Part shown: one piece after another, positions 14,860 through 57,567 of the stretch
How positions within the stretch are numbered: the first letter of the stretch is position 1
Layout: the number at the start of each line of letters is the position of its first letter
NCBI GenBank assembly: GCA_020696385.1
Contig: JAEHCQ010000003.1
Coordinates: 33,889 to 97,888 of the forward strand
DNA from: Methanobacteriota archaeon
GTDB taxonomy: Archaea; Thermoplasmatota; Thermoplasmata; SG8-5; JAGLSY01
Direction: 5' to 3'
Length of the DNA: 64,000 nt
Translations under genes and position numbers: made by a program
Notes under the pieces: generated by a model
Told to the model about the DNA's origin: nothing
Seen by the model: the letters and a program-made list of their open reading frames with translations, nothing else
Database searches by the model: none

Positions 14860-17875
<3,016 letters not shown>

Positions 17876-23900: not shown

Positions 23901-26900
23901 TAACCGTGGACAGCGGTACTTATGTTGAGAATGTGCTGGTCAATAAGGAATTGACCATTATTGGAAATGGCACTGCAAACACGATCGTCGATGGTGCAGG
24001 CAATAACAATGAGGATGTATTCTTTGTCACTGCAGATAATGTGATGATAACAAATATGAACATAACAAATGGCGGGACCATCGCGGGAGATGCTGGGGTC
24101 GAGGTCAGTGCATCCCATTGTATCATCCAGAATATCAGCTTTGACAATTTCCCATGGGGAGCTGTCAGGCCTCTTGGCGCTGACAATATCACCATAAGGA
24201 ACAATGTGATCACTGGAACAAGCTATTGTGTTTACATTCAATGGAGTGATTACTGTGAGGTCTATGATAATAACATATCGGGAAACAGCCAGGATGCAAT
24301 TTCATTTCAGAATTCCAATTGGAACACTGTGAGAGATAATGAGGTATGGCTGAACGCGGGTTCTGGATTATGGGTGCAGAGTTCTAAGAACAATACATTT
24401 GCCAACAATACACTGGCTCTGAATATTTATGGCATGGACTTCAGTTCAGATTCAGATAATTCAATGATAATTGATAATGATGTAATATCCAATACCTTCA
24501 GCGGGATAAATATATGGTCATCAGACTGGTGCCATATTCAGAACAATACGATATCTGGAAATGATTATGGAGTGAGTATTGGAAATTCCAATAATTGCAC
24601 TATCCTTGAAAATACCATATCTGGCGGCTCCTTTGCCATAAATCTGAACGGATGCTCTGAAACCGATGTCATGGAAAATAATGTAGCAGATTCAAACTAT
24701 GGTATTCAGGCAGATAATTCAAACACAATATTGATAGATGACAATGATATTTATATGACCATTACAAGGGCCATATATTTCTTATCTGGCTCGCATAATA
24801 GCACGGTCACAAACAATCGCATTGATGATTCTGCTGGCCACGGCATCTTCATGTCCGATTCGGCCTACATAACACTGACCAACAATACCATCAGGAACTG
24901 TACAAGCATGAATTGGGCTGGAATTGTGTACTGGAATACGATCTTCACCAATGTATCGAACAACAAGCTACACCACAATTATTGGGGTATCGTGGTCCAG
25001 GGCCAGTCAACTGATAATGATTTCTGGAACAATGAGATAAGGTGGAGTGATCAGCATGGGATCTGGTCAAAGGATGTCGGTGGAAGCCAGGAAAGGAACA
25101 GGTACATTGGAAACAATATCACAGAGAATGGTGTTGGGAACTTATGCGACGGTATCTATCTGGAAGGAATAGATGGTGATAACAATACTGTCGCAGGGAA
25201 CTGGGTCGCGAACAATGGCCGGAATGGTATTAAAATTCAAAACTCCGCAGGCCATCATATATCAGACAATACGATCCTTGACAATACCGGGAATGGTATC
25301 ATGCTAGAGGACTCAGAATGGAACACATTGAATGGCAACAATATATCCCATCACATGAACACAGACCCCAGGGGTATTCTCCTGGACAATAGCCAATGGA
25401 ACATGATAACTAACAACACACTATGGGACAATGGTGATGTGATATGCCTCTTCTGGACATCACAGAACAACACAGTAAAATTCAATGAGATACACGAGGC
25501 TCCTGGCCAGGGGATATATGTGGGAACTGGTTCCACTAACAATATCTTTGAACAGAACACGATCTCCAATATCAACAGTGCTGGAATATATATCCAGTCA
25601 GATGATAATGATATTATTGAAAATAGTTTCTCTTTGGGAACATCCTTTAATGTGTATCTGGACGATTGCAGCGGTGTAACTGTCAGTGGAAATGATATGA
25701 TCGATGGTAGCTTTGGAGTATATGCCACAGACGCACCAAATAACATTGTCGAAGGAAACAATATATCCAATTTAGGGAAAGCTATCTATGCTGAAAACTC
25801 AGATTACATGATGATCGACAATAATGATATGTTCAATAACAATATGGCGATCCATATCTTATCCAGCTCTTTCGATTGCACTGCAAAGAACAACCGAATT
25901 GATGGTTCAACTTCCTACAGCATTGGGATCGAAAACTCTGGCCGCATTGATCTGATGAACAATACCATCCAAAATGGTGTTGCAGGAACAAGCTGGGCGA
26001 TCTTCTTGTGGAACACCAACTGGATCAATATATCGGAAAATACAATGTTCAATAATGAAGGCGGAATAAGGATGCAGTCGAATTGTCACAATAACACAAT
26101 CTGGGACAATATCATATCCAGTAATGTAAATGGCATTTACCTGGAATTGACAAGAGACTGTAGTATCTACCACAATGACTTCATTGCCAATACCATCCAG
26201 GCCTATGATGATAGCTGGGGCAATAACTCCTGGGACAATGGCTACCCATCTGGCGGTAATTACTGGAGTGATTATGGAGGTGCAGATGTCATGTGTGGAC
26301 CATTGCAGGATACCTGGGGTAGTGACAGCCTGGGCGACACCCCATACACAAGTATCATCAGTGGAACAAATCAGGATAATTACCCGCTCTTGCACCCATC
26401 AAACTACATAGATGCTGTCGATCCAGTATCGCAGATCGACACAATATCACCCTATTGGTGGAATATCTCACCATTCGCAATAACCGCGAATGTCAGCGAC
26501 CCAGGAAGCGGAATTGACCACATCGAACTCTGGTACAGTTACGAGGGTGGCGCATGGACCTTCTTCGGCAACACGACCAGCTTTTCATGGACATGGGATT
26601 TCACATGGCCTGATGGAGAAGGGGATTATGATTTCTACTCCATTGCCATTGATAATTCTGCCAATGTCGAGAATGCTCCTGGTATCGCGGATGCAGGAGC
26701 TTATTATGATAGCACTGCTCCGATCATCAGTGCAGGGGATGATACAACTATCAACTCGGCCTATCAGCAGGATTCCTCCTACTTCGAGATAGGATCTGGC
26801 ATAGGCAATAATTCATGGACTGTTTTATCTGGCCCAGGCAATATCACTTTCACAAGCCAGTGGTCGGAAGATCCGTGGATCAGCGCGGACATGGATGGCC

Positions 26901-29405: not shown

Positions 29406-30755
29406 ATGAGGCCAATAGGGGTGTTGAATATGCACAAGAACATTTCAGAGATATTGGAAGAAGCAAAGAGGGTGAAGCTCGAGAACGTCAGGGTCCAGTT
29501 CACGGACATACTTGGAAACCCAAAGAATATCGTGATACCCGAATGGAGGCTGGAGGAAGCATTGGATGAAGGAATCGCCTTCGATGCATCTTCCATCGAA
29601 GGGTATGCCACCATTGAAGAATCTGACTTGATAGCGAAGCCGGATCTCGGCTCGTGGCAGATATTACCAGAATCATTGGAAAAACGAGTGACAGCCAGGC
29701 TCAACTGCGACATATACCGCACAAATGGCGATAGATACGCCGGAGATCCAAAATACGTGCTTGAAAAAGCGATGAAGAAGGCAAGCGACATGGGCTACTC
29801 TGCGAATTTCGGGCCAGAATGTGAATTTTTCCTGCTAAAGATGGTGGATGGAAAGCCAACTACCATTCCTAATGATACTGGCGGTTACTTCGATCTGTCA
29901 CCTAGAGATCTGGCCGAGAATGTCAGAGGCGATATCTCTGCACTTCTCCAGGAAATGGGATTTCAAGTTTACACCACGCACCATGAAGTTGCTGCTGGCC
30001 AGCATGAAATTAACTTCCAATATTCCGACCCGCTGACAACAGCAGACAGAGTGGTCACGCTGAAGTACGTGTCTAAGATCATTTCACTCAGGAATGATCT
30101 TCACGCCACCTTCATGCCAAAACCGATCCACGGAGAAAATGGAACTGGCATGCACACACATATGTCCTTGGTCGGCAAGGATGGAAACGCCTTCAATGAT
30201 CCTGATGATGAAAATGGGTTGAACAAACTGGCCTACAATTATATCGCGGGTCTTCTGCAATATTCCAAGGAGATGAATCCAATCCTCAACTCATGGGTCA
30301 ATTCCTTCAAAAGACTGGTGCCGGGTTATGAAGCTCCTTGTTACATTGCCTGGGCGACACAGAACCGTTCTGCCTTGATCAGAATTCCAGCCAAGCGTGG
30401 CGGAGGGACCAGGATCGAGCTCAGGAATCCAGATCCTGCGGGAAGTCCGTACCTGCAGTTCGCGGTCATGTTAGCTGCTGGCCTCAAAGGTATTGAGGAC
30501 AATATGCAGCCACCGGAAAGGGTGGAGAAGGACATCTACAAACTGTCGCAGGCGGAGAGAGCGAAATACAATATCGAATCATTGCCGGATAACCTCGGAC
30601 ACTCGCTCACATTCATGGAAAAATCCGAGTTAATGCTGGAGACACTGGGGCCGCATATCTTCAATAATTTCCTGTATTTGAAGAGGAAGGAGTGGGATGA
30701 GTACAGGACTCAGGTGACGGACTGGGAGATAGATCGGTATCTCAGTATATTGTAG
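29406..30755 (+). CDS. glnA: glutamine synthetase, type I
   Basis: GS-I signatures: VQFTDILG, the NFGPECEFFLL beta-grasp region, MPKPIHGENGTGMHTHMSL (ATP-binding), and NSWVNSFKRLVPGYEAP. SD taggaga precedes ATG 29406; ATG 29430 is an alternative start. Confidence 0.9.
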   Translation: MRPIGVLNMHKNISEILEEAKRVKLENVRVQFTDILGNPKNIVIPEWRLEEALDEGIAFDASSIEGYATIEESDLIAKPDLGSWQILPESLEKRVTARLNCDIYRTNGDRYAGDPKYVLEKAMKKASDMGYSANFGPECEFFLLKMVDGKPTTIPNDTGGYFDLSPRDLAENVRGDISALLQEMGFQVYTTHHEVAAGQHEINFQYSDPLTTADRVVTLKYVSKIISLRNDLHATFMPKPIHGENGTGMHTHMSLVGKDGNAFNDPDDENGLNKLAYNYIAGLLQYSKEMNPILNSWVNSFKRLVPGYEAPCYIAWATQNRSALIRIPAKRGGGTRIELRNPDPAGSPYLQFAVMLAAGLKGIEDNMQPPERVEKDIYKLSQAERAKYNIESLPDNLGHSLTFMEKSELMLETLGPHIFNNFLYLKRKEWDEYRTQVTDWEIDRYLSIL

Positions 30756-40027: not shown

Positions 40028-40318
40028 TTATTTCTTGCCAGTCACCTTTATGATATGATAGCCGAACTGAGATCTAACAGGTCCAGACATCTCCCCTTTT
40101 TCAAGAGAGAAAGCAGCTTCCTCAAAGGGTTTGGCCATCTTGCCCTTTCCAAAGTACCCAAGATCTCCGCCCTTCGCTCTTGAAGGACAGCTTGACCACT
40201 TCTTCGCCTGGGTCTCGAAGCTCGCGCCTTCATTCAATTTCTTGATTATCTTCTCAGCCTCTGATTTCTTGCCAACAAGAATATGACTGGCTCTCACTTT
40301 CTTTACATCTTTAACCAT
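40028..40318 (-). CDS. parvulin-type peptidyl-prolyl cis-trans isomerase (single-domain, Par10/PinA-like), paralog 1
   Basis: VRASHILV...CPSRAKGGDLGYFGKGKMAKPFEEAAFSL...GPVRSQFGYHIIKV are parvulin catalytic motifs. Confidence 0.75.
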   Translation of the reverse strand: MVKDVKKVRASHILVGKKSEAEKIIKKLNEGASFETQAKKWSSCPSRAKGGDLGYFGKGKMAKPFEEAAFSLEKGEMSGPVRSQFGYHIIKVTGKK

Positions 40319-40346
40319 ATGATCACTCTTTATCAAACAATGAACC

Positions 40347-40637
40347 TCAGCGTTTTTTCATCACCCTGATGATATGATAACCGAACTGCGTCCTCACCGG
40401 CCCGGATGTTTCATCTTTCTCCAGAGAGAACGCAGCCTCCTCGAAGGGCTTTGCCATCTTCCCCCTTTCGAAATAGCCGAGGTCCCCTCCCCGCTTTTTG
40501 GAGGGACATTTTGAATAAGTCTTTGCCAGTGCAGTGAAGTTCGCTCCCTCTTCAAGCTTCTTCAATATCATATTTGCATCTCTTATAGTGCTAACGAGAA
40601 TATGTCTGGCTCTGACCTTCTTGATCTCTTTGGCCAT
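40347..40637 (-). CDS. parvulin-type PPIase, paralog 2
   Basis: MAKEIKKVRARHILV...CPSKKRGGDLGYFERGKMAKPFEEAAFSL...FGYHIIRV. Confidence 0.8.
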   Translation of the reverse strand: MAKEIKKVRARHILVSTIRDANMILKKLEEGANFTALAKTYSKCPSKKRGGDLGYFERGKMAKPFEEAAFSLEKDETSGPVRTQFGYHIIRVMKKR

Positions 40638-40665
40638 TATATCAGTACCTGACGACGATACAGGA

Positions 40666-40947
40666 TCAGCGCTTGTCCGTCACCATGATGATGTGGTAGC
40701 CGAACTGAGATTCCACTGGCTTGGATATCTCTCCGATCTCCATTGAAAAGGCCGCGTCCTCGAAGGCTTTTACCATTCTTCCCTTTCCAAAGAATCCAAG
40801 ATCTCCGCCACCCTTGCCGGATGGGCATGTTGAGAACTTCTTTGCCATATTGGCAAAATCCGATCCAGAGGCAAGTTTTCCACTGACCTTCTGCGCTTCC
40901 ATTTGAGTTTTCACAAGTATGTGACTGGCTTTGACTTCTGTTACCAT
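40666..40947 (-). CDS. parvulin-type PPIase, paralog 3
   Basis: MVTEVKASHILV...CPSGKGGGDLGFFGKGRMVKAFEDAAFSM...FGYHIIMV. Confidence 0.8.
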   Translation of the reverse strand: MVTEVKASHILVKTQMEAQKVSGKLASGSDFANMAKKFSTCPSGKGGGDLGFFGKGRMVKAFEDAAFSMEIGEISKPVESQFGYHIIMVTDKR

Positions 40948-41094: not shown

Positions 41095-42795
41095 TCAATT
41101 TTTCTGCTTTGCATTCTTTTTGTTCTGTATTTTAGCCCAAGAATCCCTGAGGCCAACAGTTCTGTTGAATATGATATTCTCATCGGATGAATCCGGATCA
41201 ACACAGAAGTATCCAGTCCTCTCGAACTGCACAGTATCCCCATGCTTGAGATCCTTTACGGCAGGCTCCACCTTGCAGCCTGCCAGTGTCTTGAGTGAGT
41301 CGGGATTGATGAACTCCTTGTAATCATGCTCTTTTTCACCAAGGGGATGTTCCACCGTGAAAAGCCTGTCGTATAGGCGTATCTCCGTGTCAATGGATTC
41401 GGTCGCTGATACCCAATGAATGGTGGCCTTGACCTTGCGGCCATCAGGAGCATTGCCGCCACGACTGTCCAGATCCACGGAGCAATGCAATTCAACAACC
41501 TCGCCAGCATCATTTTTCACGACATCATTGTATGTCAGCAAGTACGCATATCTTAGGCGAACTTCCCGACCAGGTGCGAGCCTGAAGAATTTCTTGACTG
41601 GCTCCTCCATGAAATCCGCGCGCTCGATGAATATTTCTCGAGTAAAAGGAACCTGGCGACTTCCCGCATCCGGATCCTCTGGATTGTTTATGGCATCCAG
41701 CATGTCGATCTCGCCCTCCGGGAAATTGTCGATAACTATCTTGAGCGGGTCAAGAACTCCCATGACTCGCGATGCTTTTTTATTCAGATCATCGCGAACG
41801 CAAGCCTCCAGTAATTCGAAGGCGATGACATTCGCCTTCTTCGCAATACCTGCTCGAGAGCAGAATTCCTTGACGGCCTCGGGGGTGTAGCCGCGCCTCC
41901 GCATGCCACATATTGTCGGCATGCGCGGATCATCCCAGCCATTGACAAGCTCCTTGGTCACAAGCTCCTTGAGGAAACGCTTGCTCATTATCGTGTAAGA
42001 AACATTCATCCTGGCAAACTCGATCTGCTGTGGATGATAGATACCCAGCTCATCCAGGAACCAGTCGTAAAGTGGTCGATGATTTTCGAATTCTATCGAG
42101 CAAAGCGAGTGAGTGATACCCTCAATGGAATCCTCCAGGCCATGTGCCCAATCATAAATTGGATAGATACACCATTCGTCACCAGTATGCGGGTGGGTGG
42201 CATGCAGGATCCTGTACATTGGCGGGTCGCGCATATTCATGTTCGGATGCGCCATATCGATCTTCGCCCTCAGCGTCTTGGAGCCATCCGGGAATTCACC
42301 CTTCTTCATCCTCTCGAAGAGATCCAGGCTTTCCTCAACTGATCTTTCACGGTTGGGGCTGTTCCTACCGAGGTTATTGTAATCACCTCGGTATTCCTTC
42401 ATTTCCTCCGCATTGAGGTCGCAAACATACGCCTTGCCTTTTTTGATAAGGTCAATAGCATAGTCATACATCTGCTGGAAATAATCAGATGAGAATAATA
42501 GGCGATCCTCGAAATCCGCACCCAGCCATTTCACATCTTCCACGATGGAATCAATGAATTCCTTTTCTTCCGCAATGGGATTCGTGTCATCGAATCTAAG
42601 ATTGAATTTACCGCCATATTCGTCCGCGATCCCGTAATTGACCCAGATGGCCTTCGCACTGCCCAAGTGCAGGTATCCATTTGGCTCTGGTGGAAATCGA
42701 GTATGCACTCGTCCATCGTATTTCTTGGTCTTGAGGTCCTCGTCTATGACCTGTCTTATAAAATCGCGTGATTGGCTTTCTTCCATTGGATTCAC
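41095..42795 (-). CDS. glnS: glutaminyl-tRNA synthetase, bacterial type
   Basis: 566 aa that aligns along its whole length with E. coli GlnRS as recalled. Matches include NFIRQIIDEDL / DFIRQVIDEDL, VHTRFPPEPNGYLHIGHAK / VHTRFPPEPNGYLHLGSAK (HIGH motif), NLRFDDTNP, CIYPMYDF / CIYPIYDW, VMSKR (KMSKS-type), GWDDPRMPTI, RKVKG.IHWVSA, and NRTVGLRD.WAK at the C-terminus. Confidence 0.85.
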   Translation of the reverse strand: MNPMEESQSRDFIRQVIDEDLKTKKYDGRVHTRFPPEPNGYLHLGSAKAIWVNYGIADEYGGKFNLRFDDTNPIAEEKEFIDSIVEDVKWLGADFEDRLLFSSDYFQQMYDYAIDLIKKGKAYVCDLNAEEMKEYRGDYNNLGRNSPNRERSVEESLDLFERMKKGEFPDGSKTLRAKIDMAHPNMNMRDPPMYRILHATHPHTGDEWCIYPIYDWAHGLEDSIEGITHSLCSIEFENHRPLYDWFLDELGIYHPQQIEFARMNVSYTIMSKRFLKELVTKELVNGWDDPRMPTICGMRRRGYTPEAVKEFCSRAGIAKKANVIAFELLEACVRDDLNKKASRVMGVLDPLKIVIDNFPEGEIDMLDAINNPEDPDAGSRQVPFTREIFIERADFMEEPVKKFFRLAPGREVRLRYAYLLTYNDVVKNDAGEVVELHCSVDLDSRGGNAPDGRKVKATIHWVSATESIDTEIRLYDRLFTVEHPLGEKEHDYKEFINPDSLKTLAGCKVEPAVKDLKHGDTVQFERTGYFCVDPDSSDENIIFNRTVGLRDSWAKIQNKKNAKQKN

Positions 42796-42928
42796 CTTTT
42801 ATGGCCTAGGCTAATTGGAATTACCTAATTAATGTTTCTTTGGCAAACCATTCAAAAAGTAGGGTATCCAAAAAACGGGGTGCCAGGCATTATAAAAAAT
42901 CATAGATTTTAACGGTAAAAAAAGAAAG

Positions 42929-43002
42929 AGCCATTGGAGAGATTTGAACTCCCGACCTGCTGATTACAAATCAGCCGCTCAACCGGGCTAAGCTACAATG
43001 GC
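42929..43002 (-). tRNA. tRNA-Thr (anticodon UGU), no encoded CCA
   Basis: The reverse complement folds as acceptor GCCATTG/CAATGGC, D-arm GCTT-AGCCCGGTT-GAGC, anticodon arm GCTGA-TTTGTAA-TCAGC, T-arm GGGAG-TTCAAAT-CTCTC, and discriminator U. Confidence 0.8.
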
Positions 43003-43246
43003 GTATGCATTCTGTACCAATGGCCATTGTAGGTCGAGCTTCAATGGCGCATGGTATTATTACCCCTGGAAGTTAAATTTATATAAATATCTATTGAATG
43101 ACAAATCATTGCAAATGAGTTAAATATCAATTCGTTTTTACACGGTTGCTGAAATATGCAAAATGTGCTCAATTGCCTCGAGGTGTGAACACGGAACTTA
43201 AGTTCCTTAGTTGACACCACTCGGCTGTTGGGTATAAAAAACCCAA

Positions 43247-43318
43247 CAGCCTCGTAGTGTAGCGGTTATCATGGGAGACTCTGGATCTCTCGACTCCAGT
43301 TCAAATCTGGACGAGGCT
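43247..43318 (+). tRNA. tRNA-Gln (anticodon CUG), A1:U72 and discriminator A73, no encoded CCA
   Basis: Acceptor AGCCTCG/CGAGGCT, anticodon arm GGAGA-CTCTGGA-TCTCT (U33, anticodon CTG, G37), T-arm TCCAG-TTCAAAT-CTGGA. The D-arm TAGTGTAGCGGTTATCAT resembles archaeal tRNA-Gln. Confidence 0.7.
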
Positions 43319-43990
43319 ATATATTTTTATTAATGAGTCCAGATTTGAACTTAGCCCGAAAATGAATATCAACATTTTACAGCTTAATGCTAGGGCGTGA
43401 GCGTGGATTCGCAAGGCTAATCCACGTCATATTCAAAGAGGCTACCATATTTTATCACTTCATAAGTTTGATTTATCTTAACACAGTGAAGATCCATATA
43501 AAGAAAATGTAAACAATAATAACCGCCGAAATTCCTAAAAATAACAAAAAAAGTTGTGCGAAATAATCCTTTATATACTTTTCTATGGTCTATATTTAAA
43601 GGTTATTGCCAAAAAAATAATACCCACCAAAAGGTCTTTATATCTCCCTTCACAATAACCAAAATGGGATTGTGGCAAGGTGTTCGTTCCCTTGATATAG
43701 AATACCTTGCTTCGCCTCCTTATTTTTCAAATAATAGATCAATTATGAAATATAATTTTAAATTTTAATCCAGAAACATATGACATACTCTCAGGAAAAA
43801 AGGTGAAGCGAAAGGAAAAAGTAAACTTTATGGGGGAAGAGAGTCTAACAAAATGCCCCTCCGCTTCGTCACCAGCATATTGTAATTAGAATATAAGGTT
43901 TACGATTTGTATGACGGCATTCTACAGGCAGAGCAATATGATATTGTTATAGTGACTAGGTCATGTCTGCCATTATAATAGTCATGTCAA

Positions 43991-44818
43991 TTATTCCAAT
44001 TTTTTATGGATATAGGAATCTCCTTCTTCCCAATATCTCAACCCATCCACAAGCAGTCCATTCTCATCTCTCAGGAATATCACATCACCGTTATTATTCC
44101 ATATGGATGAGTCACTTCCCCAATATACCGTGATATTGGAATCCGTACCAGTTCCGCTTGCGAGAGATATTGAAGTGCCTGGCTCAAAAGTAATATCATC
44201 AAATCCATACATATGAGTTGCCTCATCCTTCACATTCCAATAGGTCATGTTGATCGGATCATCCCCATTGTTCGTAAATGTTATTGTCTCATAGTTCAGG
44301 CCAGCATCCCCCGAGAGCTGGATCGGCTGGAAATCGGATATCACCACATCATAAGGAGATGGTTCCCATAGGCCTCTCTTGGCCGCGATGGCCTCAGCCT
44401 CAGCCTCCTTTAGTTCGTCCCAGTATTTCGAATTGGGCTCGATGACATAGACATGGGCATAGCCCGACCTCACCATTTCCAGATTGACATGGACATCCCC
44501 CGCCCATACATAGCGCAGGAGTCGGCCGTAACCGTCCTTATCGGCCACATCGCCCTCCAGCCTTATCTCGCCTCCACCAAGGAGCTCTTCAAGCCTTTCT
44601 GTGGCCTTATCGGCGTATGGCACGCCCCTCTCGGGAGTGTTGATCCCCAGAAAACGTATCGAATCTCCATTCGTGGTCCTGATAGTATCTCCATCGACCA
44701 CGTAATCCACATGAGTGAATTCATCATTAGCACTTGGAAGTATATCCGAAGAAATAAGGATGCCAGCAGCTGCCAGGACCAGAATAATTACAGCTACCGC
44801 GATCTTGCCAGAGGACAT
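43991..44818 (-). CDS. secreted/membrane-anchored thermonuclease (SNase-like) with C-terminal lamin-tail domain (LTD)
   Basis: N-terminal signal anchor (IAVAVIILVLAAAGILI). SNase core (VVDGDTIRTTNGDSIRFLGINTPE...YGRLLRYVWAGDVHVNLEMVRSGYAHVY...AEAEAIAAKRGLW). A ~120-aa LTD follows (ISDFQPIQLSGDAGLNYETITFTNNGDDPINMTYWNVKD...IWNNNGDVIFLRDENGLLVD). Confidence 0.8.
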   Translation of the reverse strand: MSSGKIAVAVIILVLAAAGILISSDILPSANDEFTHVDYVVDGDTIRTTNGDSIRFLGINTPERGVPYADKATERLEELLGGGEIRLEGDVADKDGYGRLLRYVWAGDVHVNLEMVRSGYAHVYVIEPNSKYWDELKEAEAEAIAAKRGLWEPSPYDVVISDFQPIQLSGDAGLNYETITFTNNGDDPINMTYWNVKDEATHMYGFDDITFEPGTSISLASGTGTDSNITVYWGSDSSIWNNNGDVIFLRDENGLLVDGLRYWEEGDSYIHKKLE

Positions 44819-45009: not shown

Positions 45010-48000
45010 TCATTCTTCCTCGCTGGTCTTCATGCTATCAGCACAATCATTGCAGACGAAATCACCTTCTCCATCAGAGGATCCAGTCTTTCCAGACACT
45101 CCACAGTACGCACATTTGTCCTCTTTTGCTGGTTCAGGCTTCTCCTTATCGCTGCCACCCTTTCTCATGCTGATGACGGTGTTGACAAGAAGCAGGATTA
45201 TGACTATTATCAGAAGCAGCATGATGATGTTCTGATTTCCCTGCTGCTCACTTGACTCCGCACCCACCTTGTCCATCACGCTGGCCTCTGCCTCATCCAG
45301 ACTTTGTGCCAATGTGAAGAGATCGGCTCGGATCTCATCCAGTTTTGCAAGCTCTGCAAGAGTGTCATCGATATCTGCCAGGGTTGCATTGATATTATCC
45401 TGGAAGTCCATGATGTCCTGGTTCAGAGCCTGAAGATAAAGTAGAGCTCCAATGTCATGGGATGATAGATTGGCGGATATCCAATTCAGCCTCTGAGTTA
45501 ATTCGGCCAGTGTCAATGAATTGAGGTCACGGATAGTGTCATCGAGTAGAACCAGATCAGCAGTCATATTCTCATCATGAGATACCAGAAGCTCTCTCAG
45601 TCCGGCCAGTGAATTATTGAGGTCACTGTAGAAGCCATCCACCATGTTCTCAAGATCAACTATCCTGCTGTCCAGGTAGGCAGTGTCTGCATCCAGAGCG
45701 GCGATCATATCGATCAGCGCAGATGCAAGACCGTCCTGCATCGTGATGTTCAGACCATCCAGATCCATACTGAGACCATCCAATAGAAGGGTCAGGTCAG
45801 CTGTCTGATTCATTATCTGACTGTACAAAGCGAAGTCCACCCTGGCCAGTTCGTCCATGAAGGTCAGATTAAGGCCATCTATGAGACTGGTCAGGTTTCC
45901 CTCGACCTGCCATAGGTCCGAATACAGGCTGGCAACTGTCATGTTCAGGTAATCGATGTCCGCCTGAAGATCTGACACACTCATATTCAGCCAGGCAAGA
46001 TCTATCTGCACCTGAAGTAGAGTGGCATTGACATAATCAACATCGGCCTGCATAAGATCCAAAGTGGTATTGAAGTCTGCCCAGTAAGCAGATATCTGAC
46101 CATATGTCATCATATTCTCCATTGAGAGATTCGTCATACCGGAATCCATTGCGAATCTCATACTCGCTATGCTCGCATCCATCGCAGATATGTTAAGGTC
46201 CTGCGATGACAGCATTCCGCTTATGTATGATTCTGTGGCCGCCATGTCAGTCCAGGTTGTATTGAACCAGGCATTGGTTTGACTTGTCTGGGCCATAATG
46301 TCACCCCAGGTCATATTGAACCAATCATTGACCTGACTTGTCTGGGATGACGCATCAGCCCAGGTTGTGTTGAACCAATCATTGATCTGGGATGTCTGGG
46401 CTGCCATCGTGGTATTGTAATGTGCCCAGAACACTGTGAATTCCGCCCTCAGATCATTCAGGGATGACTGCATCGCCAGCTGTGTCATATTAGCAAAGTT
46501 CAGATCGTTCTGGATCTGTGTCATCGTGGTATTCCAGGATGTCCAGTATAGGCTCTGCAATGTATGTGTGTCATTATGCTGGCCCCACATTATCTGGAAA
46601 TAGTTCTGCATCGCGGCATCCATACTGGTCAGATTGGCATCCAGCTGTCCAAGATTTCCGGACAGATCGCTCAGAAGCAGGGTGATATTCGCCTCGAAGC
46701 CACTCATCTGGCTCCTGATGCTGGCGCCCTCGGCCTGGATGGTCAAGTTCAGACCATCCATCGTGGTGTTCAGATAGTTCTGATATGCCTGGAAATACAG
46801 ATGCCAGTTATCCCATGTTAGATTGAAATCATCCCTGTGTGCGAGCAATTGTGCCAGTATGATATTGGCCGTCGCATCCAAAGATGCAAGATCAAGCTGT
46901 ACTTGCAGAAGTGTGGCATTGAGGAAATCAATGTCCGCGCCCAGTGCGGCAGATGTCATATTCCAGTCTGCCCAGTAGAGGCCATGTAGTGCTTGTGTAT
47001 CATTGTGCTCGTCCCACATAGACTGGAAATAGGCCTGCATGACCGCATCCATGTTGGTCACATTAATATCCAACTGCCCAAGGTCAGCATCCAGATCATT
47101 CAAGAGAGCGGTCATATTGCCCTCGAAATCATTCATCTGGGTGTATACAATAGCTATCTGGTCCTGAAGTGTTATGTTCAATCCGTCAGTCGTTGTATTG
47201 AAATATGACCAGTATGAATCGAACTGCGCGTCCCATGTTGCCCAGGTTGCATTGAAATCAGTCCAATATGCCTGTATCAGCGCATTGTTCGCAGTCACTG
47301 TCGCATTGATATCAGTAATTGTCTGGATCCAGCCAACGACCTCGAAGCTGGTTATTCCAATGTAATTGAAGCCAGCTATCTGGGCGTTCACTGCAACGAA
47401 GTAGGTTCCTGCCGCGGGTATGCTGTCACTGTATGTGTAGAGCCCGAATGATGCATCCAGTATGTTCATGGATGCATTGTCCACGATCTTTGTCATGGTG
47501 TCGTCAAATATGGTCACGCTCACATTGGTGAAAGCGTCTGGCACCAATGCCTGACCGTTCTGGGTTACGGATGCCATGATATCATATTCAACACCATTGG
47601 CATCGTACTGAAGACCAGTTGTGACATCCACATTTGTTGGTGGTGTTGTGGAAGATAGGGTCACGGTGACTTCCTTTGACATATCGATTGAAGCAACAGT
47701 GGAGCCCATCAAAAGACCATTATTGGCAATAGCCAAATGCGGTGTATTAGCTGTCTGGCTAGCCTGATCCTCGACATACTCTGTCACAATATTCCATCTG
47801 GCATATCCATTAGCATCGGCATTCACATTGTAAAGCGGTGTATTGAAGATATCAGCGATCTCCACCTGTGCTCCTGGTACTGGCTGCATCATGTCATCAC
47901 GCACGTACACATCCATGAACCACTGTATCTCAAGTGTGGAGAGCGCATCCATATAATTTATGGATGCCTTGTTAAAGGTCGAGTTCAGTGTCGTGATGTG

Positions 48001-51000
48001 GCTGTCCTGGTCCAATGCCAACTCAAAGCCATTGCCAGAGAACGTGAAGTTCTCAATGGTGAAGGTACTGTCAACACCAAAAACACCGGTCGGAGAGTTG
48101 GTTATGGTATTCAGAGACATTGGAGTGGTATAATCAGAACCCCTTACACCCAGTCCAAAAGCCGTAAGTGCGTTCATTGTGTTGCCAGTTATGAGATTGT
48201 CACCAGAGTCCCAAGAATAGATACCTATGGGGCTGCTGGTTATAATGTTCGATATTACAGTGTTGCCGAATGTCCCATCAGACAATCTGATACCTTCAGA
48301 GATCGCGCCGGTAATAGTATTGCCAGATACAAGATTTCCAGTGGATGTAAGAGTGACTAAGACCCCTATCATTGAAGAGCTCATCAAATTGTTTGTAACA
48401 TAGTTCGAATCTGAATCACTTAAACTGATATCATTCTGGGCATTGCTATTGAATGTTGAACCGTTGATCACATTGTAATTTGACGATTGTAATCTTATGC
48501 CTCGCCATAGGCTTGAGGTGATCGTGGAGCCCTCGATGGTATTGTAATCACAATTAAAGGCAAACACCCCCCCACTGTCACTGTTCGTGATCACAGTATT
48601 GATAATGGTGTTGTAATCGGCATCACGCAGGTACAATCCATATCCCTCATCGCTATTGGATATCGTCGAGTTGATTATGTAGTTGTTATCTGACCTAAGG
48701 TACAATCCATGAGCATTGCCAGTGAATGTCGCATTGTAGAGAAATACGCCGTTTGCGTATACTTCCACACCTTCATTTGACCAATCCCAGCCGGCATCCC
48801 TAATGGTACTGTTCTCCACCCTGAAGCCAGCACCACTCATCACATTGATAAGATATCCAAAGGTCGTGTTGGACATCACAGTGCTTCCTTCGATTAGATT
48901 GAAGGTACCTGTGGAGTTCACCTGGATAAGATACTGGCCATGGAAGGCATTGTTCATTCTCAGCTCGGTCTCGTCAAGTATCAAAGAACCACCGCTCTCG
49001 ACCCAAATATCACCAGTCTGGTTCCAGAAGGATGGATCCACAGTTAGTGTTCCGCCATTCCTTATGACCAGCTGGCCAGTGAGATTGAATGATGAGTCCC
49101 TTATCAGGACATCGACACCATCGACGGTGACATCCTCGAAGTACGTCATGTCATCAAGATGTAATTCATCGCCATCACTTGCATTGGCGATGGCTCCCTG
49201 TAGTGTATCATACCACAATCCCTGGTCCCAATTGAGAACATGCTGGTCAGGATGTAACATATTCCATCCGAATGGGTTGGTATGGGGGAAATAATCAGTT
49301 GAGTCACCGTCGATCACGTATGGAACATCGACAAAGCCATCCCAGTTTATGTCCGGAGATGTCCAGGTGTCGAAATAATTACCACCCTGGGCATACCCTA
49401 GATTGTAGGTGTTGGCTGCGAAAGAATCCAATATATGCACAGTGTTATTGATGAAATTATTGTGGAATATGTAATTCCCATTGAAGCTGCCAGGTGATGT
49501 CACATAAATACCATTGGTTCCATCCCTGAAGGTATTATTGCTGATCTCATTGCCATTGGCAGTATTTGCTGAGCCACCATTCCATATCCCATTACCATTG
49601 CCAGATACCATGTTCCATCTTATCAGATTGTTATCTGAGTAATCCCAGATCCTGAATCCAATGCCTGAATTCAAAATGGTATTGTTGTTTATATCACAAA
49701 GATCCGTATTGACTATATTTATTCCATTGGCCGCATTGTCATAAAAGTCATTATATCGGACAATAACGCCATCGGCACCATTGAGCATCAATCCGTCCAA
49801 ACCATTCCCGTATATCATGTTCTGGAAGACCGTGGCTCCATCGGAGAACAGGTAAAGGCCAGTTCCGGTATTGTTGTAGATCGTGTTATTGGCTATATAA
49901 TGCGGTGATGTGGAATCCATCTGGATACCCTGACCACCATTGAATCCAACGGTATTACTCTCGATGATAGCATCATCAGGATAAGATCCCTCAAAGTAAA
50001 TTCCTGCGCCAGTGTTGTTGTGGACGTAATTATCGATCACCTCTGCCCAATCAGCATACCAGTAGAAGTTGATACCCTCTTCAGAATTGTAAGATATCTC
50101 ATTTCTATATATCTTATTGGAGTCGCCGTGGTAAACGTAGATACCGATCCTATTGTATTGAATAGTATTGTCAAGTATCTTGTTATTATCACAGTCATCA
50201 TCTTCCAGTGCTATGCCATCTACAGTGCTGTTCGTCACGGTGTTATTGTGTATCGTGTTTAATGTAGAGGTTCCGTACATTGATAATCCATTGGCCGCAC
50301 TGTTATTGATAGTGTTCCAGGCAATTATATTGGATGATCCTCTGAAGCGCATTCCATAGCTGTTCGAATCCAATATATCATTATCTCTGAAGATATTCGA
50401 GTTACCTGTGGAGATGATACCATATAGATTGGTATTGATGATCGTGTTATTATGAACCTTTGTTGAGTCACTGGCACTGTACATATCGATACCATAGGAG
50501 TTCGTATCGCTGATCGTATTATGGGAAATGATATTGTTGGACGCTCCGGTGAAGTATATTCCAGTTGCCCCGCCTGTTATGGTATTGTTGTCGACAATAC
50601 AATTTGTTGGACCATCGATCTGTAATATGTTCTGAGCAGTCGAGGAGGCCGAGAGGTCATTCCAGGTCACATTGTTCCACTGGCTAACACTGGTTATCCT
50701 GAGCTGACCAATATTGTCAATGATATCGTTTTGTGTAATGGTGTTAGAATCAGAACCATCAGCAACATAAATTCCCAGGTTGCCATTGTCATATACCATA
50801 TTGTTCTCGATCAGGTTGAAATTTGAATTCCAGACAACTCTGATTCCAGTCAATATATTTGAGCCCATTGAACTATTGGCTACATAACTGTAGTTTGAAT
50901 TATAGTATCCAAGGCCAAAGTAATTCCCGGTAACATTGACACTTTCCACTTTGACGTGTTCCGCATACCATATGGCAAGACCAGCATCATTGCCAGAACT

Positions 51001-54000
51001 ACCACTGTTGGTGATCTTAAACCCAGAGATATTGGCCCAGTCCGATGTGATCTGAGCAGAAGTTCCGGTTCCCAGAGCATCGATGGTGGTATTATCCATG
51101 CTGGCTCCGATCAATGTCAGAGCTTTGCTGACCACGACATTCTCATAATACTCACCCTCGCCCACAGTTATCGTGTGGCCGTCAAGGGTATCTGCATCGT
51201 CTATGGCCATCTGGATGGTCAAGAACTGTTCGCCAGAATCTGTATTGATGACCGAGCCTATGGCATTGGCAAGTGGGAAAGCATCCATATTCAGGCCAAT
51301 GACATATGGTACATCCACTATGCCATTGAGATCCGCATCTGGTGTCTGCCAGTCATTCCAATAATTACCCTGAGAGAGTATGCTGGATCCCCATGCATTC
51401 TCATCCAGCTCATAGACCTGGACACCATTGTCAATGAAATTGTTATGATAAAGGATATTGTCATTTCCTTCTTCAATATAAATCCCATATCCGAGATTAT
51501 CTTGGATCGTGTTATTTGTAAACATGTTGGTACGGTTCACTTGTAATGTAGCAGCTATCTCAGGTATGGCTCTAAGGAAAGGATAGGATGTGCCTTCATT
51601 GATATCCCAAACAGTAGTGAAGTCCCAGCCTGTGAATGTTGCTTCTTGCTGCATCTCGACTGTTGTCTTTCCAGTTCCGTCTGCACTAACCAGGTTCCCT
51701 GATGCATCTGTATCCCAGAAGCAATTGGTGACCGTGCCTATGATATCATATCCGACAAAGCCTCCCACAAAGGAGGTGCCTGTAGCATTGCCCGTGCTGT
51801 AGGAGTTCATGACCAAGCCTTCATTTCTTCCAACGAAGCCGCCAACTGAGCCACCGACCCCACTGGCACTGCCTGTGCTGTAGCAATTCGTTATTGAATC
51901 ATCACTCCATCCGACAAAGCCTCCAATATAATCCTCTCCATTGGCACTACCTGTACTGAAGCTGTTCATGATCGAACCCCAGTTCTCTCCAGCAAAGCCA
52001 CCGATGGAATCTCCTGTTCCGGTGGCATCGCCTGTACTGGAGCAGTTCTCGATAGTACCGGCATCGTTCACTCCAATGAAACCGCCAATTGAGAGGTCTC
52101 CAAGGACGATAGTAGTGCTGGAGCATTCTGTTATCAAACCAGCATCATTCCATCCTACAAAGCCACCTACTCCCTGAGAACCGCTCGCATTACCTGCGCT
52201 GAAGCAATTTGTTATCGTACCACCTGTATTTCTTCCAATGAAGCCGCCAACTCTGTGTGTAGTTCCTGTAATATCCCCAGTTGAATTGGAGTTCGTTATT
52301 GTTCCTTGGCCTAGACCCACAAGGGCTCCAACAAACTGATCACCAGTTATGTTGCAGTTGTCCAATATCAGATTGGTAACGGATGAAGGGATACCCAGAT
52401 AACCGAAAAGTCCAACATAATCTGTTGCTGGCCTATTGATGAATAGTCCATCGATCTCATATCCTTGGCCATCAAGTGAGCCTGAGAATTGGGTTGCAAG
52501 AGTTCCAATTGGTTCAAAGCCAGCTCCTGCATTCCATGTTGATGTGGCACTTGCATCGATATCATTCATCAAGTAGTAATCCACAGTCAGATCCAAACTC
52601 ATATTTTGGAGTTCAAAGACATTGAATATCATATTGGATGGTGCATTTGTTATTTGGAATGGATAACCGCTTCCATCCATTACTGCCCATACAGTAGTGA
52701 AATCCCAGCCAGTGTATGTCGATTGCTGTTGCATCTCGGCCGTGGTCTTTCCGTAAAGATCGACAATTCCTGTGTTGGATCCAAAGCCAGTCATCGATCC
52801 AGATGTATCCGTGTCCCAGAAACATGGGTCGATCGTGCCTTCATTCTCACCTGCGAATGCTCCAATATCTGAATTGCCGGTTGGAATACCCGTGCAATAG
52901 CTATTGATGATAGTTCCGAATATAGAGCCAACAGTGTTGATGCCAACAAAGCCACCGACCTTATTGTATCCGTTCACATCACTAAGACTGTATGAATTAT
53001 TGATGTAGTATTTGTTGGTTCCAGCAAAGCCGCCGTAACCATTGCCGGTGGTAGTATTGCCAACAGTGCCTGTGCTGAAACTTTGGACTATCGGGCCTTC
53101 ATTGAATCCAACGAAGCCGCCGACATCTAAAGCACCGTCAACATCCCCAGTGGCCGAGCAATCCTTGATCTCCATGATACCGAAAGATTTGGAGTGAATT
53201 CCCACAAAACCACCTATGGATGAGGAGAATGTAGAGCTAACGACCTTTGTGCTACTTGAGCTTCCGGTTATCTCGCCATAATTCTCTCCAACAAAGCCAC
53301 CGATCTGACTATTTCCATATAATAAGCCACCAGCACTGCAATCTGTGATAGTTCCAGTGTTAAGTGCCGTTAAGCCTCCTGCCATACCTCCAGAGGTTTG
53401 ATTTAAGAAACCAAATGTAGAGCTATCAGATATTGTCGAGCTCCAGGCCTGGCCAACTAAACCACCGAGGTATGATTTTCCTTCGATGTAGATATTGGTC
53501 ATGTGAACATTTTGGATCGTCGCGCCCCAAGTGTATCCAAACAATCCAAGATCACTCTCACCTGGACGAACCATTATCAAGCCGTTAATAGTGTATCCTT
53601 GACCATCCAGAGTACCCTGGAATGGACCACTTGAAGATCCAACAGTGACGAAACCCAGACCACCATTCCATGTTGATGTAGCACTTGCATCGATATTATT
53701 CATTATCTTATAGCTGGCTGTCAGATCATCATTCATTTCCTGAAGCTCATTGACATTGGTTATCTGATATGGATCACCAGGAGTTCCCGTGCCAGTACCT
53801 GTGAAGAAAGGTGCAGGAGTTGGAATTGGCTGTGAAGCAGTTCCTACATTTGTCTGACCTATCGTGCTAAATGGCGCATTGTAAGTTCCATTTATGAATA
53901 TTCCATCACCAGTATTTCCGACGATCGTGTTCCTGCTGATATCATTCACAACACCACTGTGGGTTGCGAGATCGTAAAGGTAGAGACCATCGCCATTGTT

Positions 54001-57000
54001 ATTCAATATCATGTTGTTTGTAATATCAATGTTAACGGAATAGTTGACAGCTATCCCATCATATCCGCTGTTACCGACAGTGTTGTTCCTCACTGGCGTG
54101 TCTTGAGCTTCCAATAGCCAGATACCGAAGTGACTGCTATTCCAGACCTCATTGTTCTCCACGGTATTGTTGTGGTGTGGGTTGTCATAAGTTCCGCCAT
54201 AATCATTCAGAATAGCAATGCCAGTCCAATTGCTGTTCGTGACATTATTTCCAATGATTTTTGTATTGTCTACCTCATATACTCCCCATAACAAACCAAT
54301 TCCATAGTTCCTGCTATCCGAGATAGTATTGTAAAGTATCTGATGATCGCTACCCTGGCCGAAATAAATACCGTGGCTGTTATTCGTGATATTATTGTAT
54401 CTAACTATATGCCCCCAGGTATTTCCACCGCCGATTCCGATCCCACCATTATCATAAACATCATTGTACTGATAAATACCATTGTTAGCATAACTCATAT
54501 AAGCACCATATATGTCATTGTTATGAATGGAATTGTTCTCTATGGTATTATAGTTACAACCATAATCATTTCCGATGCCGAAATAATAGTTATCAAATAC
54601 GTCATTATCCGCTATAACATTGTAATCTGAATATCTTTCAATATGGATACCACCATCAAAACTGCCCATACCCAGTCCATTGTTGTAGACTGTGTTTTCC
54701 CTTACAATATTGTAATCTGTTATACCAGTGAAAGAATACAGGTTTATGCCGTCCTCGTCATTATCGAAGACGGTGTTATTTGAAACTGTGTTATATCCTG
54801 CCTGATAGAGTAATATTCCGTTCTCCCTTTGCGAGTCAGAGACAGTGTTATTATCAATGATGTTCCATGATCCAGTAGATACCTGAATTCCATTGTATTC
54901 ACAGAAAGATATCGTATTGTTCAATATCATATTGGAGCTCGTGGACTGAACTCGGATTCCATCATAATCGCTGGCTGTTATTATATTACCCTCAATGGTA
55001 TTTGAGCTTCCAGCAGATATCCTGATACCATGCTGAGATCCGTACATGATATTGTCATACACATGAACATTGGTCACAGTGTCCAGGTTAACACCAGCAT
55101 CTGCACTTAAGCTGGTTCCGCCATTGGTGACATTGAATCCAGTTATGTTCACCCAGTTGGACTGGATATCCATAACTTTACCGACTCCACTGCCGTCAAT
55201 TGTTGTATTGTCCCTGCCAGCTCCCTGTATTGTCAGGGTCTTGTTGACTATGACATTCTCTGTGTATGTGCCTTCTGCAACAATGATCGTGTGCCCATCC
55301 ACTGTGTTTGAATCATCAATAGCTTCCTGGATATCTGAGAATGTATCACCAGTATCGATGTTTTCAACGGGGTCTGCTAAAAATGGCCAGCCACTTGGAG
55401 ATACCCAGGGGAAGTCGTCCTGGCCATTGGTGGAAAAGATGGTGTTCCAGGAACCTGCAGATGTCCATTCAATACCCATGTAAGGCGTGTCGCCTATGCC
55501 ATCGCCGTTACCATCAGCACCTGCATAGTCATCCCAGTAGTTACCACCAGATGGAAGTCCATTATCCCAGAATGGATTGCCGCTGTCAAAGGCATGGAAT
55601 CCAAGGTTGTTAATGAAATTATTATTGAAAATGACGGCTCCGATGTTCGGGCCATCCACAGTAATACCATTACCAGCGTTGCCGGAAATGGTATTGTTCT
55701 CTATGAAAGCATTATCCATATTAGCTCCGATATGAATACCATGTTGCAATGTACCAGTTACATTAAATCCAGATATCTCGACATTTGGTGCACCGATATA
55801 GAAACCAATATTGTTGACACCCTCGCCATCAAGAATGGTATTGTCCTTGTTCTCTCCGGTTATGATCAGTTCCTTGTCGATATTGACAGATTCATTGTAT
55901 GTTCCGGATTCGACAAATATCTCGTGGCCATCCAATGTCTCAGAAGCATCAATGGCTTCCTGAATGGTCCTGTATGTGAAACCAGTGTCCAAATTACTCA
56001 CTGGAGTCACCCAATAATTTGCCACCATCCAAGGATAAGCATCCGACCCAGTGCCTGGAATCGCTCGTGCTGTGTCTCCAATGCCATCTGAATTCGCATC
56101 TACGCCAATATAATCATCCCAATAATTACCACCAGTTGGGAGAGATTGAGACCATATTTGGGTGCCAGAGCCTTCGGAGTAAGCATGCATGGCATTACCA
56201 ATGAAATTATTGTTGTATATCTGGGTCTGAGGACCTTGTGAATTTGAAATAAAGTATAAATGGATACCGTATTGGCTGGCGCCAGAGATTGTGTTTCCAA
56301 TTATCCGATTATTGTGGGTGGCACTGAGATAAATGCCTAATGTGCCGCCAGTGATCGTGTTCGATTCGATGATGTTTCCAATACTTGGAAATCTTTGAAT
56401 GTACATACCATATGTATTGGATGTGAATGTGTTATCCTTAATTGAGGTGTAGGATGATTCCCAATCCCATATGCCTCTTGCATTGCTAGTCATTGTATTA
56501 TTGTTTATGTCATTGTGATCGGCTCCCACATATAAGGCAACAGCAGATGAATAACTAGATGTGAATGTATTTCCTGTGATCACATTGTAGGTGGCTCCTT
56601 GCAGCAATATACCCTGGCCATTGTCATGAATGATATTGTTCTCTATCAAGCAGTGATCGAAATTGTTAATGTAAATTCCACCATTGAGATTATATTGGTA
56701 TGAATTCTGTATTTTGAGATCCTTCACGGTCACATAGTCTGCCTGTATGTTCACAGTGTGCGTGACTAGGCCACCATCTATGATAGTGGTCAACGGATCC
56801 TCTCCCTGAAGTGTGATGGCTTTATCGATCACCACATTCTCAAAGTATGTTCCCGCACTGACCAGGATCGTATGCCCGTCTAGTGTCTCAGAGGCATCAA
56901 TAGCCTCCTGGATCGTGTTATAGCCAAAACCTGTGTCAATATTCTCCACAAGATATAGGGCATTGTCTTCATCTCCAAGATTCATCCCTATAACACTCAC

Positions 57001-57057: not shown

Positions 57058-57310
57058 ATTTGTCCTCTCCGATTCATTGTGCACGCAAATCGCGTACCTT
57101 AACTCTGTTACAACACGGGATTAACAGATTATTAATATAGTTATGCACTAATAAAAATAAATATGAATATATGTATATAATGCACCATATAATAATTAAC
57201 GATGGTTAATGAAACTATTGTAATAATAAAATGTTAATTATTATATGCAAAACGCACCATTATTACACCCAATGATGCGGAAAGATAACTAAAAAATAAG
57301 ATATAAAGCA

Positions 57311-57331: not shown

Positions 57332-57447
57332 GCAAAGATGTTTCTTTGCGAGCAAGACCAAAAATGTTACATATTCCAGCGATGACTTTTGGTTGTAGTT
57401 TTCGAATCGACCCCTCAGCGCTGGCTATCAATATTAAAATGCAAAAG

Positions 57448-57567
57448 CGCCGAGGGGGAGATTCGAACTCCCGAGGTGAAACACCACCGGCTTTCTGACC
57501 CAGAAATGAAATGAAATGACATTTCTGAATTCGAGGCCGGCGCCCTACCGGACTAGACTACCTCGGC
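57448..57567 (-). tRNA. tRNA-Ser (anticodon CGA) with 37-nt intron at position 37/38, long variable arm, discriminator G73, no encoded CCA
   Basis: The reverse complement reads GCCGAGG-TA-GTCT-AGTCCGGTA-GGGC-G-CCGGC-CTCGAA[TTCAGAAATGTCATTTCATTTCATTTCTGGGTCAGAA]A-GCCGG-TGGTGTTTCACCTC-GGGAG-TTCGAAT-CTCCC-CCTCGGC-G. The intron contains an 8-bp internal helix (CAGAAATG/CATTTCTG) and an (ATTTC)x3 repeat. Confidence 0.8.

Follow-up and report, generated by a model that had tools for sequence, protein, structure and literature searches.

In a survey of >2500 genomes by Chaliotis et al., no glutaminyl-tRNA synthetase (GlnRS) was found in archaea (PMC5388404). According to reviews published as late as 2022, GlnRS is missing from all archaea and the indirect route to Gln-tRNA-Gln is universal among them; citing Tumbula et al. 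2000, these reviews ascribe the absence of the enzyme to idiosyncrasies of archaeal tRNA-Gln that make it incompatible with GlnRS (PMC9499178, PMC8762117). A passing statement to the contrary, citing Furukawa et al. 2017, appears in PMC8879553. A preprint on Heimdallarchaeia (bioRxiv 10.1101/2024.07.04.601786) likewise contains a passing glutamine-tRNA ligase annotation in archaeal metagenome-assembled genomes (MAGs); however, these belong to another phylum, the gene lies beside cox genes, and origin, tRNA and pathway are not analysed there. Our search of the open-access full-text literature revealed only such passing statements, and no study of an archaeal GlnRS, its tRNA or a linkage between glnS and tRNA genes. 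Here we describe a glnS gene in a 64,000-nucleotide stretch of contig JAEHCQ010000003.1 (GCA_020696385.1, positions 33,889 to 97,888), hereafter the window, from an archaeon of the Thermoplasmatota. We estimate at roughly 85% the probability that this open reading frame encodes a functional, discriminating GlnRS of bacterial ancestry and is a resident gene of its archaeal host. Sequences of this kind are already in GenBank under annotation; their biology is undescribed in the open-access literature searched. The finding contradicts a widely repeated generalisation: this locus and its many relatives point to the uptake of a bacterial GlnRS by an archaeal lineage, in which strong selection has maintained the enzyme and tRNA-Gln is still archaeal-looking.

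A bacterial-type glutaminyl-tRNA synthetase

glnS occupies 41095..42795 on the minus strand and encodes 566 amino acid residues when read from the GTG at 42795. The ATG at 42786, which gives 563 residues, is the likelier start, because it is used in the public gene call of an identical protein (P0001) and agrees with the N-terminal alignment to relatives and to E. coli GlnRS. The protein matched the NCBIfam glnS equivalog TIGR00440 with 698.2 bits (cutoff 425.8) over the whole profile (positions 1-524 of 524), whereas its score with TIGR00463 (gltX_arch, archaeal glutamyl-tRNA synthetase [GluRS]) was 377.9 bits, under that model's own cutoff of 401.75. Pfam searches revealed a class Ic catalytic domain and both anticodon-binding barrels (PF03950 and PF20974). 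A PDB search ranked bacterial GlnRS above eukaryotic GlnRS, and the latter above GluRS: E. coli GlnRS had E=3e-200 (669 bits) in an alignment over residues 6-556, human GlnRS had E=2e-132 (445 bits), and archaeal GluRS 3AII had E=3e-55. The window protein and E. coli GlnRS are collinear, with 54.6% identity. A sequence-only reading of the locus had proposed a bacterial-type GlnRS rather than an archaeal GluRS, with C-terminal anticodon-binding beta-barrels as in E. coli GlnRS; the model scores, the PDB ranking and the two Pfam matches bear out both proposals.

The best NCBIfam model was NF011291 (glutamine--tRNA ligase/YqeY domain fusion; 811 bits). Because this match stops at position 567 (positions 9-567 of 769 matched), the window protein evidently lacks the YqeY domain. 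The same fusion name is attached by NCBI to the archaeal homologues P0004, P0019, P0081, P0093 and P0094; these have 557-565 residues, which leaves no room for YqeY, and the name is thus a misnomer for them. The GlnRS-YqeY fusion of Deinococcus type (PDB 2HZ7) therefore resembles the window protein in being the subject of its best-scoring model and in lending its name to the Thermoplasmata homologues, but differs from it in carrying the additional domain.

Residue conservation was determined in an alignment mapped to E. coli GlnRS numbering, in which 119 members of the clade containing the window protein (described below) were compared with 164 sequences outside it. Residues R30, E34, D66, Y211, H215, C229, F233, Q255, R260, S269 and K270 were invariant in the window protein and in 119/119 clade members, and M268 was kept in 118/119. 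The anticodon-reading residues R341, R402, R410, R412, Q517 and R520 were likewise invariant in the window protein and throughout the clade. S227 (read directly from GITHSLC), C229, F233 and Q255 lie within a GITHSLC..F..Q context that is the same as in E. coli. We take these four positions, together with R30 and Y211, to be those of the pocket that distinguishes Gln from Glu, and C229 and Q255 to be Arg and Ile in GluRS-type pockets, as in GlnRS-to-GluRS engineering. The motifs that had been read as HIGH and VMSKR are in fact HLGS and IMSKR. Both class I motifs are present in this form: HLGS keeps H40 and G42 and has Ser in place of H43, and IMSKR keeps M268, S269 and K270.

Archaeal host and phylogenetic position

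glnS lies between archaeal markers on a single contig. A full-length archaeal 23S rRNA gene (14874..17861, minus strand; RF02540, 2784 bits, model positions 1-2987 of 2987) is located 23 kb to one side, and a tRNA-Ser(CGA) gene with a 37-nt intron at position 37/38 (57447..57567, minus strand; detected by Rfam, and by ARAGORN in intron mode only) is located 14 kb to the other. These flanking genes confirm the archaeal host that had been proposed from the window alone. No 16S or 5S rRNA gene was detected by Rfam in the whole 64 kb, so that the 23S gene stands alone; we take unlinked rRNA genes to be usual in Thermoplasmata. The closest labelled homologues of the window GlnRS are from Thermoplasmata or Thermoplasmatota.

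The GC content of glnS is 0.488, and that of its third codon positions (GC3) is 0.563; GC3 of the other 20 window genes ranges over 0.46-0.61, and codon use in glnS is unremarkable. An independent assembly (GCA_020714265.1, a 15.8-kb contig) is 100% identical to the window over 4.7 kb. In the sister locus L174 (GCA_020697715.1), the glnS DNA is 90% identical and synteny is retained, the common gene order being giant protein, tRNA-Gln, tRNA-Thr, glnS, rotamases, MarC, UppS and DUF1015. The ratio of nonsynonymous to synonymous substitution rates (dN/dS, Nei-Gojobori) was 0.050 relative to L174 and 0.057 relative to a homologue with 78% protein identity. glnS is thus under purifying selection and compositionally ameliorated. 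The markers, composition, identical assembly, synteny and dN/dS together exclude misassembly, recent transfer and pseudogenisation.

Among the best 120 database matches (65-100% identity), every archaeal-named one was from Thermoplasmata, Thermoplasmatales or Thermoplasmatota. In species-representative genomes, the top two loci were Thermoplasmatota MAGs, and the rest were bacteria of many phyla with 53-65% identity. Neighbour-joining (NJ) analysis of the full set (284 leaves) placed the window protein and all archaeal-labelled sequences in one clade of 119 leaves, nested among bacterial GlnRS. In the reduced, bootstrapped set (76 taxa), this clade comprised 53 representatives with 69% bootstrap; its sister was a Brocadiaceae sequence (56%), and bacterial phyla surrounded them. 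The unlabelled clade members that were sampled all had archaeal gene contexts: ribosomal protein L18Ae, prefoldin and SRP54 for P0029, ELP3 and RTC/CinA for P0054, MCM and TBP for P0023, and class I lysyl-tRNA synthetase (LysRS) for P0017 and P0094. A clade member is also encoded by CP070798.1 (GCA_020343515.1), the closed chromosome (1.92 Mb) of a member of the Thermoplasmatales. A metagenome search for relatives gave mostly bacterial loci among the matches listed (at least 600 stretches), and only L084 of these fell in the clade. A Thermoplasmatota-dominated clade nested among bacterial GlnRS, with relatives in archaeal contexts, supports the horizontal acquisition suggested by the sequence-only reading. 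The simplest reading of these trees and contexts is an old transfer followed by vertical inheritance of glnS.

A class I LysRS gene was also found just upstream of glnS, or of its tRNA cluster, in L166 (8258..9865), L173 (5143..6714) and L168 (1..58).

tRNA-Gln genes linked to glnS

The presumed substrate is encoded nearby. A tRNA-Gln(CUG) gene (43248..43319, plus strand; ARAGORN and Rfam) is divergent from glnS and lies 453 bp from its GTG. It has A1:U72, G2:C71, C3:G70, A73, G10, U35, G36, G37 and A38, with the anticodon loop CUCUGGA; distance, 1:72 pair and discriminator base are as had been noted from the sequence alone. A YUG-type anticodon, a weak 1:72 pair, G2:C71 and G10 make it a cognate-type tRNA-Gln. 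A tRNA-Thr(UGU) gene that had been overlooked (42928..43002, minus strand; Rfam 65.8 bits, ARAGORN) is situated between the two, 132 nt upstream of glnS and on the same strand. L174 shares this layout; in L175, the two tRNA genes are inverted. For glnS of the window lineage, a separate promoter is the likelier arrangement; it would lie within the 132 nt between tRNA-Thr and glnS, a spacer that contains TTTATAAT and ATTAATTA boxes.

A repeat search revealed an inverted repeat (I1) with 20-nt arms, 85% complementary, at 43214..43260 (plus strand), in which tRNA nucleotides 1-13 are matched by complementary sequence in the tRNA-Gln 5' leader. Its core is a perfect 10-bp stem (GGCTGTTGGG/CCCAACAGCC) around a TATAAAAAA loop. 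The sole TATA-like box is too close for a normal promoter, as it lies 7-15 nt from the mature tRNA-Gln 5' end. Similar tRNA-derived structures were observed elsewhere at these loci. Beside tRNA-Thr(UGU), a hairpin at 43015..43056 consists of a copy of the first 7-10 nucleotides of the tRNA and their complement (GCCATTGTAG...CAATGGC), forming an acceptor-stem-like minihelix; one of the same kind is found beside tRNA-Thr in L175 (2483..2510). L175 also has a direct repeat, AAAACAGCCCTGTAGTGT, 48 nt upstream of tRNA-Gln (2620..2650), which gives an acceptor-stem mini-hairpin. Downstream of tRNA-Gln, a conserved element of ~130 nt (43330..43455 in the window; 2790..2950 in L175) opens with 15 nt that copy the tRNA T-arm perfectly in inverted orientation (GTCCAGATTTGAACT, 43337..43351) and holds a GCGTGGATT/AATCCACGT hairpin; its terminal motif ACTAGTCCAGATTTGAACTTAGCCCGAAAG occurs twice in L175. 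The presence of this element in L175 and its absence from L174, a much closer relative, raise the possibility of a small mobile element resembling a miniature inverted-repeat transposable element. No Rfam family was matched by it in a search of 43300..44000.

Linkage of tRNA-Gln to glnS extends well beyond the window. A tRNA-Gln gene was found within 3.2 kb of glnS in 10/11 archaeal loci with adequate flanks: the window itself, L174, L175, L002, L168, L173, L166, L172, L082 and L171. No tRNA-Gln gene was found near glnS in the remaining one, L170. The arrangement varies. In the window and L174, tRNA-Gln(CUG) is divergent from glnS, with tRNA-Thr between. In L175, it is 245 nt upstream, on the glnS strand, and contains an intron of ~36 nt at position 37/38; this intron, after G37, caused the gene (2673..2780) to be missed by default ARAGORN and by Rfam. 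tRNA-Gln(CUG) is 3 kb upstream of glnS in L168 and 2.1 kb upstream in L172, and L002 has one intact and one decayed copy ~1 kb upstream. Four loci (L166, L082, L171 and L173) have both isoacceptors around glnS, CUG upstream and UUG just downstream. L173 has its CUG gene 1.1 kb upstream, beyond a GTPase gene, and its UUG gene 83 nt downstream. L166/L167 have the order tRNA-Gln(CUG), glnS, tRNA-Gln(UUG), and the glnS ATG of L166 is 5 nt after the discriminator base. L082 (a closed genome) and L171 have the CUG gene ~40 nt upstream; downstream are UUG, a further UUG copy (extra or decayed) and tRNA-Glu. From the 5-nt spacing we infer that glnS of L166 is co-transcribed with the upstream tRNA-Gln; co-transcription is possible in L082 and L171. 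tRNA 3' processing at L166, and possibly at L082 and L171, would then leave a near-leaderless glnS mRNA.

If a 2-Mb genome has two tRNA-Gln genes, a given locus would have one within 3.2 kb by chance with a probability of ~0.6%; because the loci are related by descent, this figure mainly shows that the linkage has outlasted many rearrangements. Extra or decayed tRNA-Gln copies in L082 (11740..11812, decayed), L171 (9742..9815, a second UUG) and L002 (8984..9056, 3' half decayed) suggest repeated local duplication of tRNA-Gln around glnS. tRNA-Gln adjoins glnS also in ~17 bacterial loci, mainly from Anaerolineae, Bacteroidota and Omnitrophota; the linkage may predate the transfer, or glnS may have integrated at a tRNA-Gln locus.

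A1:U72, G2:C71, C3:G70, C4:G69 and the loop C-U-N-U-G-G-A were invariant in 13/13 glnS-linked archaeal tRNA-Gln genes. Boxes resembling the TFIIB recognition element (BRE) and TATA box (aaaaG-TTTAATAT or TTATATAA) were found 30-55 nt upstream of such genes. Judged by these features, the glnS-linked tRNA-Gln genes are native archaeal genes. Co-transfer of a bacterial tRNA-Gln with glnS was considered and is ruled out for the present-day loci, the linked tRNAs being archaeal in sequence, in promoter and, in one case, in having an intron.

The identity elements of E. coli tRNA-Gln are U1:A72, G3:C70, G73, A37 and U38; the window tRNA-Gln has A1:U72, C3:G70, A73, G37 and A38 at these positions. 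The P0081/P0054 subclade has five glnS-linked tRNA-Gln genes, of which four carry the E. coli-type discriminator G73 (L082, 9889..9960 and 11921..11992; L171, 7887..7959 and 9908..9979). A73 is present in the fifth (L171, 9742..9815) and in all other archaeal glnS-linked tRNA-Gln. The features regarded as archaeal also occur in tRNA-Gln beside bacterial glnS: A1:U72 in L078, A73 in L024 and L072, C3:G70 in L072 and L145, and G37/A38 in L012 and L024. The E. coli identity set is thus not general for the family. Since each of A73, A1:U72, C3:G70 and G37/A38 is found beside a bacterial glnS, none of them is tenable as a barrier to GlnRS, and for the GlnRS of the window's branch the proposed orthogonality barrier would be weak. 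The natural enzyme/tRNA pair makes the barrier hypothesis directly testable and raises the question whether GatDE can be lost. A GlnRS/tRNA-Gln pair with such unusual identity elements may also be useful for orthogonal translation systems.

Predicted pathway and comparison with known systems

Conservation of the Gln pocket and of the anticodon-reading residues, a linked tRNA-Gln gene and a glutamine synthetase gene nearby strongly suggest that glnS amounts to a working pathway of direct glutaminylation. The glutamine synthetase gene (glnA, 29406..30755, plus strand; Gln-synt_C, E=8e-122) is ~11 kb from glnS, and its product would supply free glutamine. GlnRS would activate the glutamine and ligate it directly to the archaeon's own tRNA-Gln (CUG/UUG). 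In this step it is predicted to read C/U34-U35-G36 through the conserved arginines and glutamine of the anticodon barrels, and to open the acceptor-end A1:U72 pair, which is weak. Such a route would bypass, and may replace, the non-discriminating GluRS and GatDE.

Several observations weigh against this interpretation. HLGS, in which the second His of HIGH is replaced by Ser, is rare, being found in 5/119 sequences of the clade and 2/164 outside it. Three positions that contact tRNA in E. coli are changed in the window protein (D235 to N, L136 to Y and E323 to A). The divergent orientation of glnS and tRNA-Gln, with tRNA-Thr between, makes co-transcription inapplicable in the window lineage. 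The 69% support for the clade is from NJ only, and internal nodes are weak. Finally, a bacterial subgroup (P0014/L083, L084 and P0028) lies nested within the clade (91% support); L083 has a bacterial context, with tRNA-Arg(ACG) and an E. coli-like tRNA-Phe nearby, and this nesting leaves the number and direction of transfers unsettled. The three contact changes were also considered as an archaea-specific adaptation. N235 is present in 110/119 clade members and also in 36/164 sequences outside, and Y, F or W at 136 likewise occurs outside the clade; adaptation is thereby ruled out, and the changes at the acceptor-end and G10 contacts are, on this distribution, family variation.

It is very improbable that the window protein is instead a GluRS of archaeal type (whether discriminating or non-discriminating) or a GluRS-like enzyme that attaches Glu to tRNA-Gln. 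GlnRS is homologous to archaeal and eukaryotic GluRS, and the gltX_arch model does give 378 bits; however, this is below that model's cutoff while the glnS model is far above its own, bacterial and then eukaryotic GlnRS precede GluRS in the PDB ranking, and C229 and Q255 are invariant where we take GluRS-type pockets to have Arg and Ile. An artefact in which misassembly or misbinning joined a bacterial gene to archaeal DNA has a next to negligible probability. The contig is metagenome-derived, and some clade members bear bacterial labels (TA06, Petrotogales, Planctomycetota); against this stand the archaeal markers on both sides of glnS, the identical DNA of the independent assembly, the shared synteny with L174 and its 90% identical glnS, the homogeneous composition, the relative in a closed archaeal chromosome, and, in L175, the intron-bearing archaeal tRNA-Gln 245 nt from glnS. 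The polarity of transfer needs more consideration. The nested bacterial subgroup, and deep NJ nodes with almost no support, would also fit the reverse course, in which the clade originated in Thermoplasmatota, its source being an older gene or one derived from eukaryotes, and was passed on to bacteria. We consider this unlikely, because the clade is a single tip cluster in a broad, multi-phylum bacterial radiation, the score with E. coli GlnRS (669 bits) is far above that with human GlnRS (445 bits), and GlnRS is absent from other studied archaea (PMC5388404, PMC9499178). A bacterium-to-archaeon direction is inferred on these grounds: the ancestor of the archaeal group would have taken glnS from a bacterium, the nearest bacterial sequences being of Planctomycetota/Chloroflexota type. 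The tree is most simply read as one bacterial import into Thermoplasmatota, after which glnS descended vertically and was secondarily passed back to bacteria once; in view of the weak internal nodes, two separate imports are possible.

A bacterial-type GlnRS resident in the archaeon may nevertheless work beside a retained non-discriminating GluRS and GatDE, perhaps serving one isoacceptor or one growth condition. A1:U72 is the pair recognised by GatDE, and all linked tRNA-Gln keep it. The window lineage has only the CUG isoacceptor near glnS, and many bacteria keep GlnRS and GatCAB together. However, bacterial GatCAB is also needed for Asn, whereas we know of no second substrate for GatDE, so that keeping both routes would be redundant. 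The presence of both isoacceptors around glnS in four loci, and a dN/dS of 0.05, which argues that glnS is essential, also speak against two routes. No gatD, gatE or gltX (GluRS) gene was found in the 64-kb window or in ~150 kb of related archaeal flanks (at most 10 kb each). A dual route is on balance the less probable outcome, although the chance of it is considerable. Replacement of the indirect route by GlnRS leads to a more speculative proposal, which we put forward tentatively: glnS and its own flanking tRNA-Gln genes might form a self-contained decoding cassette that let a large Thermoplasmatota branch discard GatDE, with a near-leaderless glnS mRNA arising from tRNA 3' processing in some members. 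If true, the cassette would be a natural counter-example to the view that archaeal tRNA-Gln is orthogonal to GlnRS, GatDE (treated as an archaeal signature enzyme) would be dispensable, and tRNA processing would tie synthetase output to transcription of the substrate tRNA.

Other genes of the window were also inspected. Directly downstream of glnS are three tandem paralogous genes for PpiC/parvulin-type rotamases of 102, 96 and 93 residues (40028..40947, minus strand), of which L174 and L175 have two copies. Genes for an 878-residue protein with GLUG, He_PIG and Ig-like domains (18138..20774, minus strand), a very large protein of 2606 residues (20921..28741, plus strand) and a protein of 4024 residues (45010..57084, minus strand), whose L174 orthologue has NosD and beta-helix repeats, together account for ~1/3 of the window; their products are probably surface proteins. 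XseA (exonuclease VII large subunit) and an RsgA-type GTPase are encoded at 4134..5327 and 5957..7027, respectively, both on the minus strand. Both families are typically bacterial, which gives a hint that this genome has acquired many genes from bacteria, glnS among them.

Among known systems, E. coli GlnS (PDB 1GTR, 1QTQ and 1O0B) has the same domain order, a Rossmann catalytic domain followed by two beta-barrels, and its Gln pocket, MSK loop and anticodon-reading Arg and Gln residues are identical to those of the window protein. The differences are the archaeal host, HLGS for HIGH, and the substitutions at 235, 136 and 323. The nearest non-archaeal relatives are GlnRS of Planctomycetota/Chloroflexota type (Thermoguttaceae L003, Scalindua L004, Brocadiaceae L063 and P0014), with 58-68% identity. 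Several bacterial relatives (Anaerolineae, Omnitrophota, Bacteroidota) resemble the window in having tRNA-Gln(CUG) directly beside glnS, some of these tRNAs with the CUCUGGA loop and others with A73 or C3:G70; however, the linked tRNA-Gln genes of these bacteria are themselves bacterial, mostly with U1:A72, and lack introns and BRE/TATA-like promoters throughout, and none of the bacterial loci has tRNA-Gln on both sides of glnS. The archaeal indirect pathway, in which non-discriminating GluRS (e.g. 3AII), a distant homologue of GlnRS, acts with GatDE, yields the same end product, Gln-tRNA-Gln, on an A1:U72 tRNA. The window enzyme, by contrast, is predicted to form this product in one step from free glutamine, without a Glu-tRNA-Gln intermediate or an amidotransferase.

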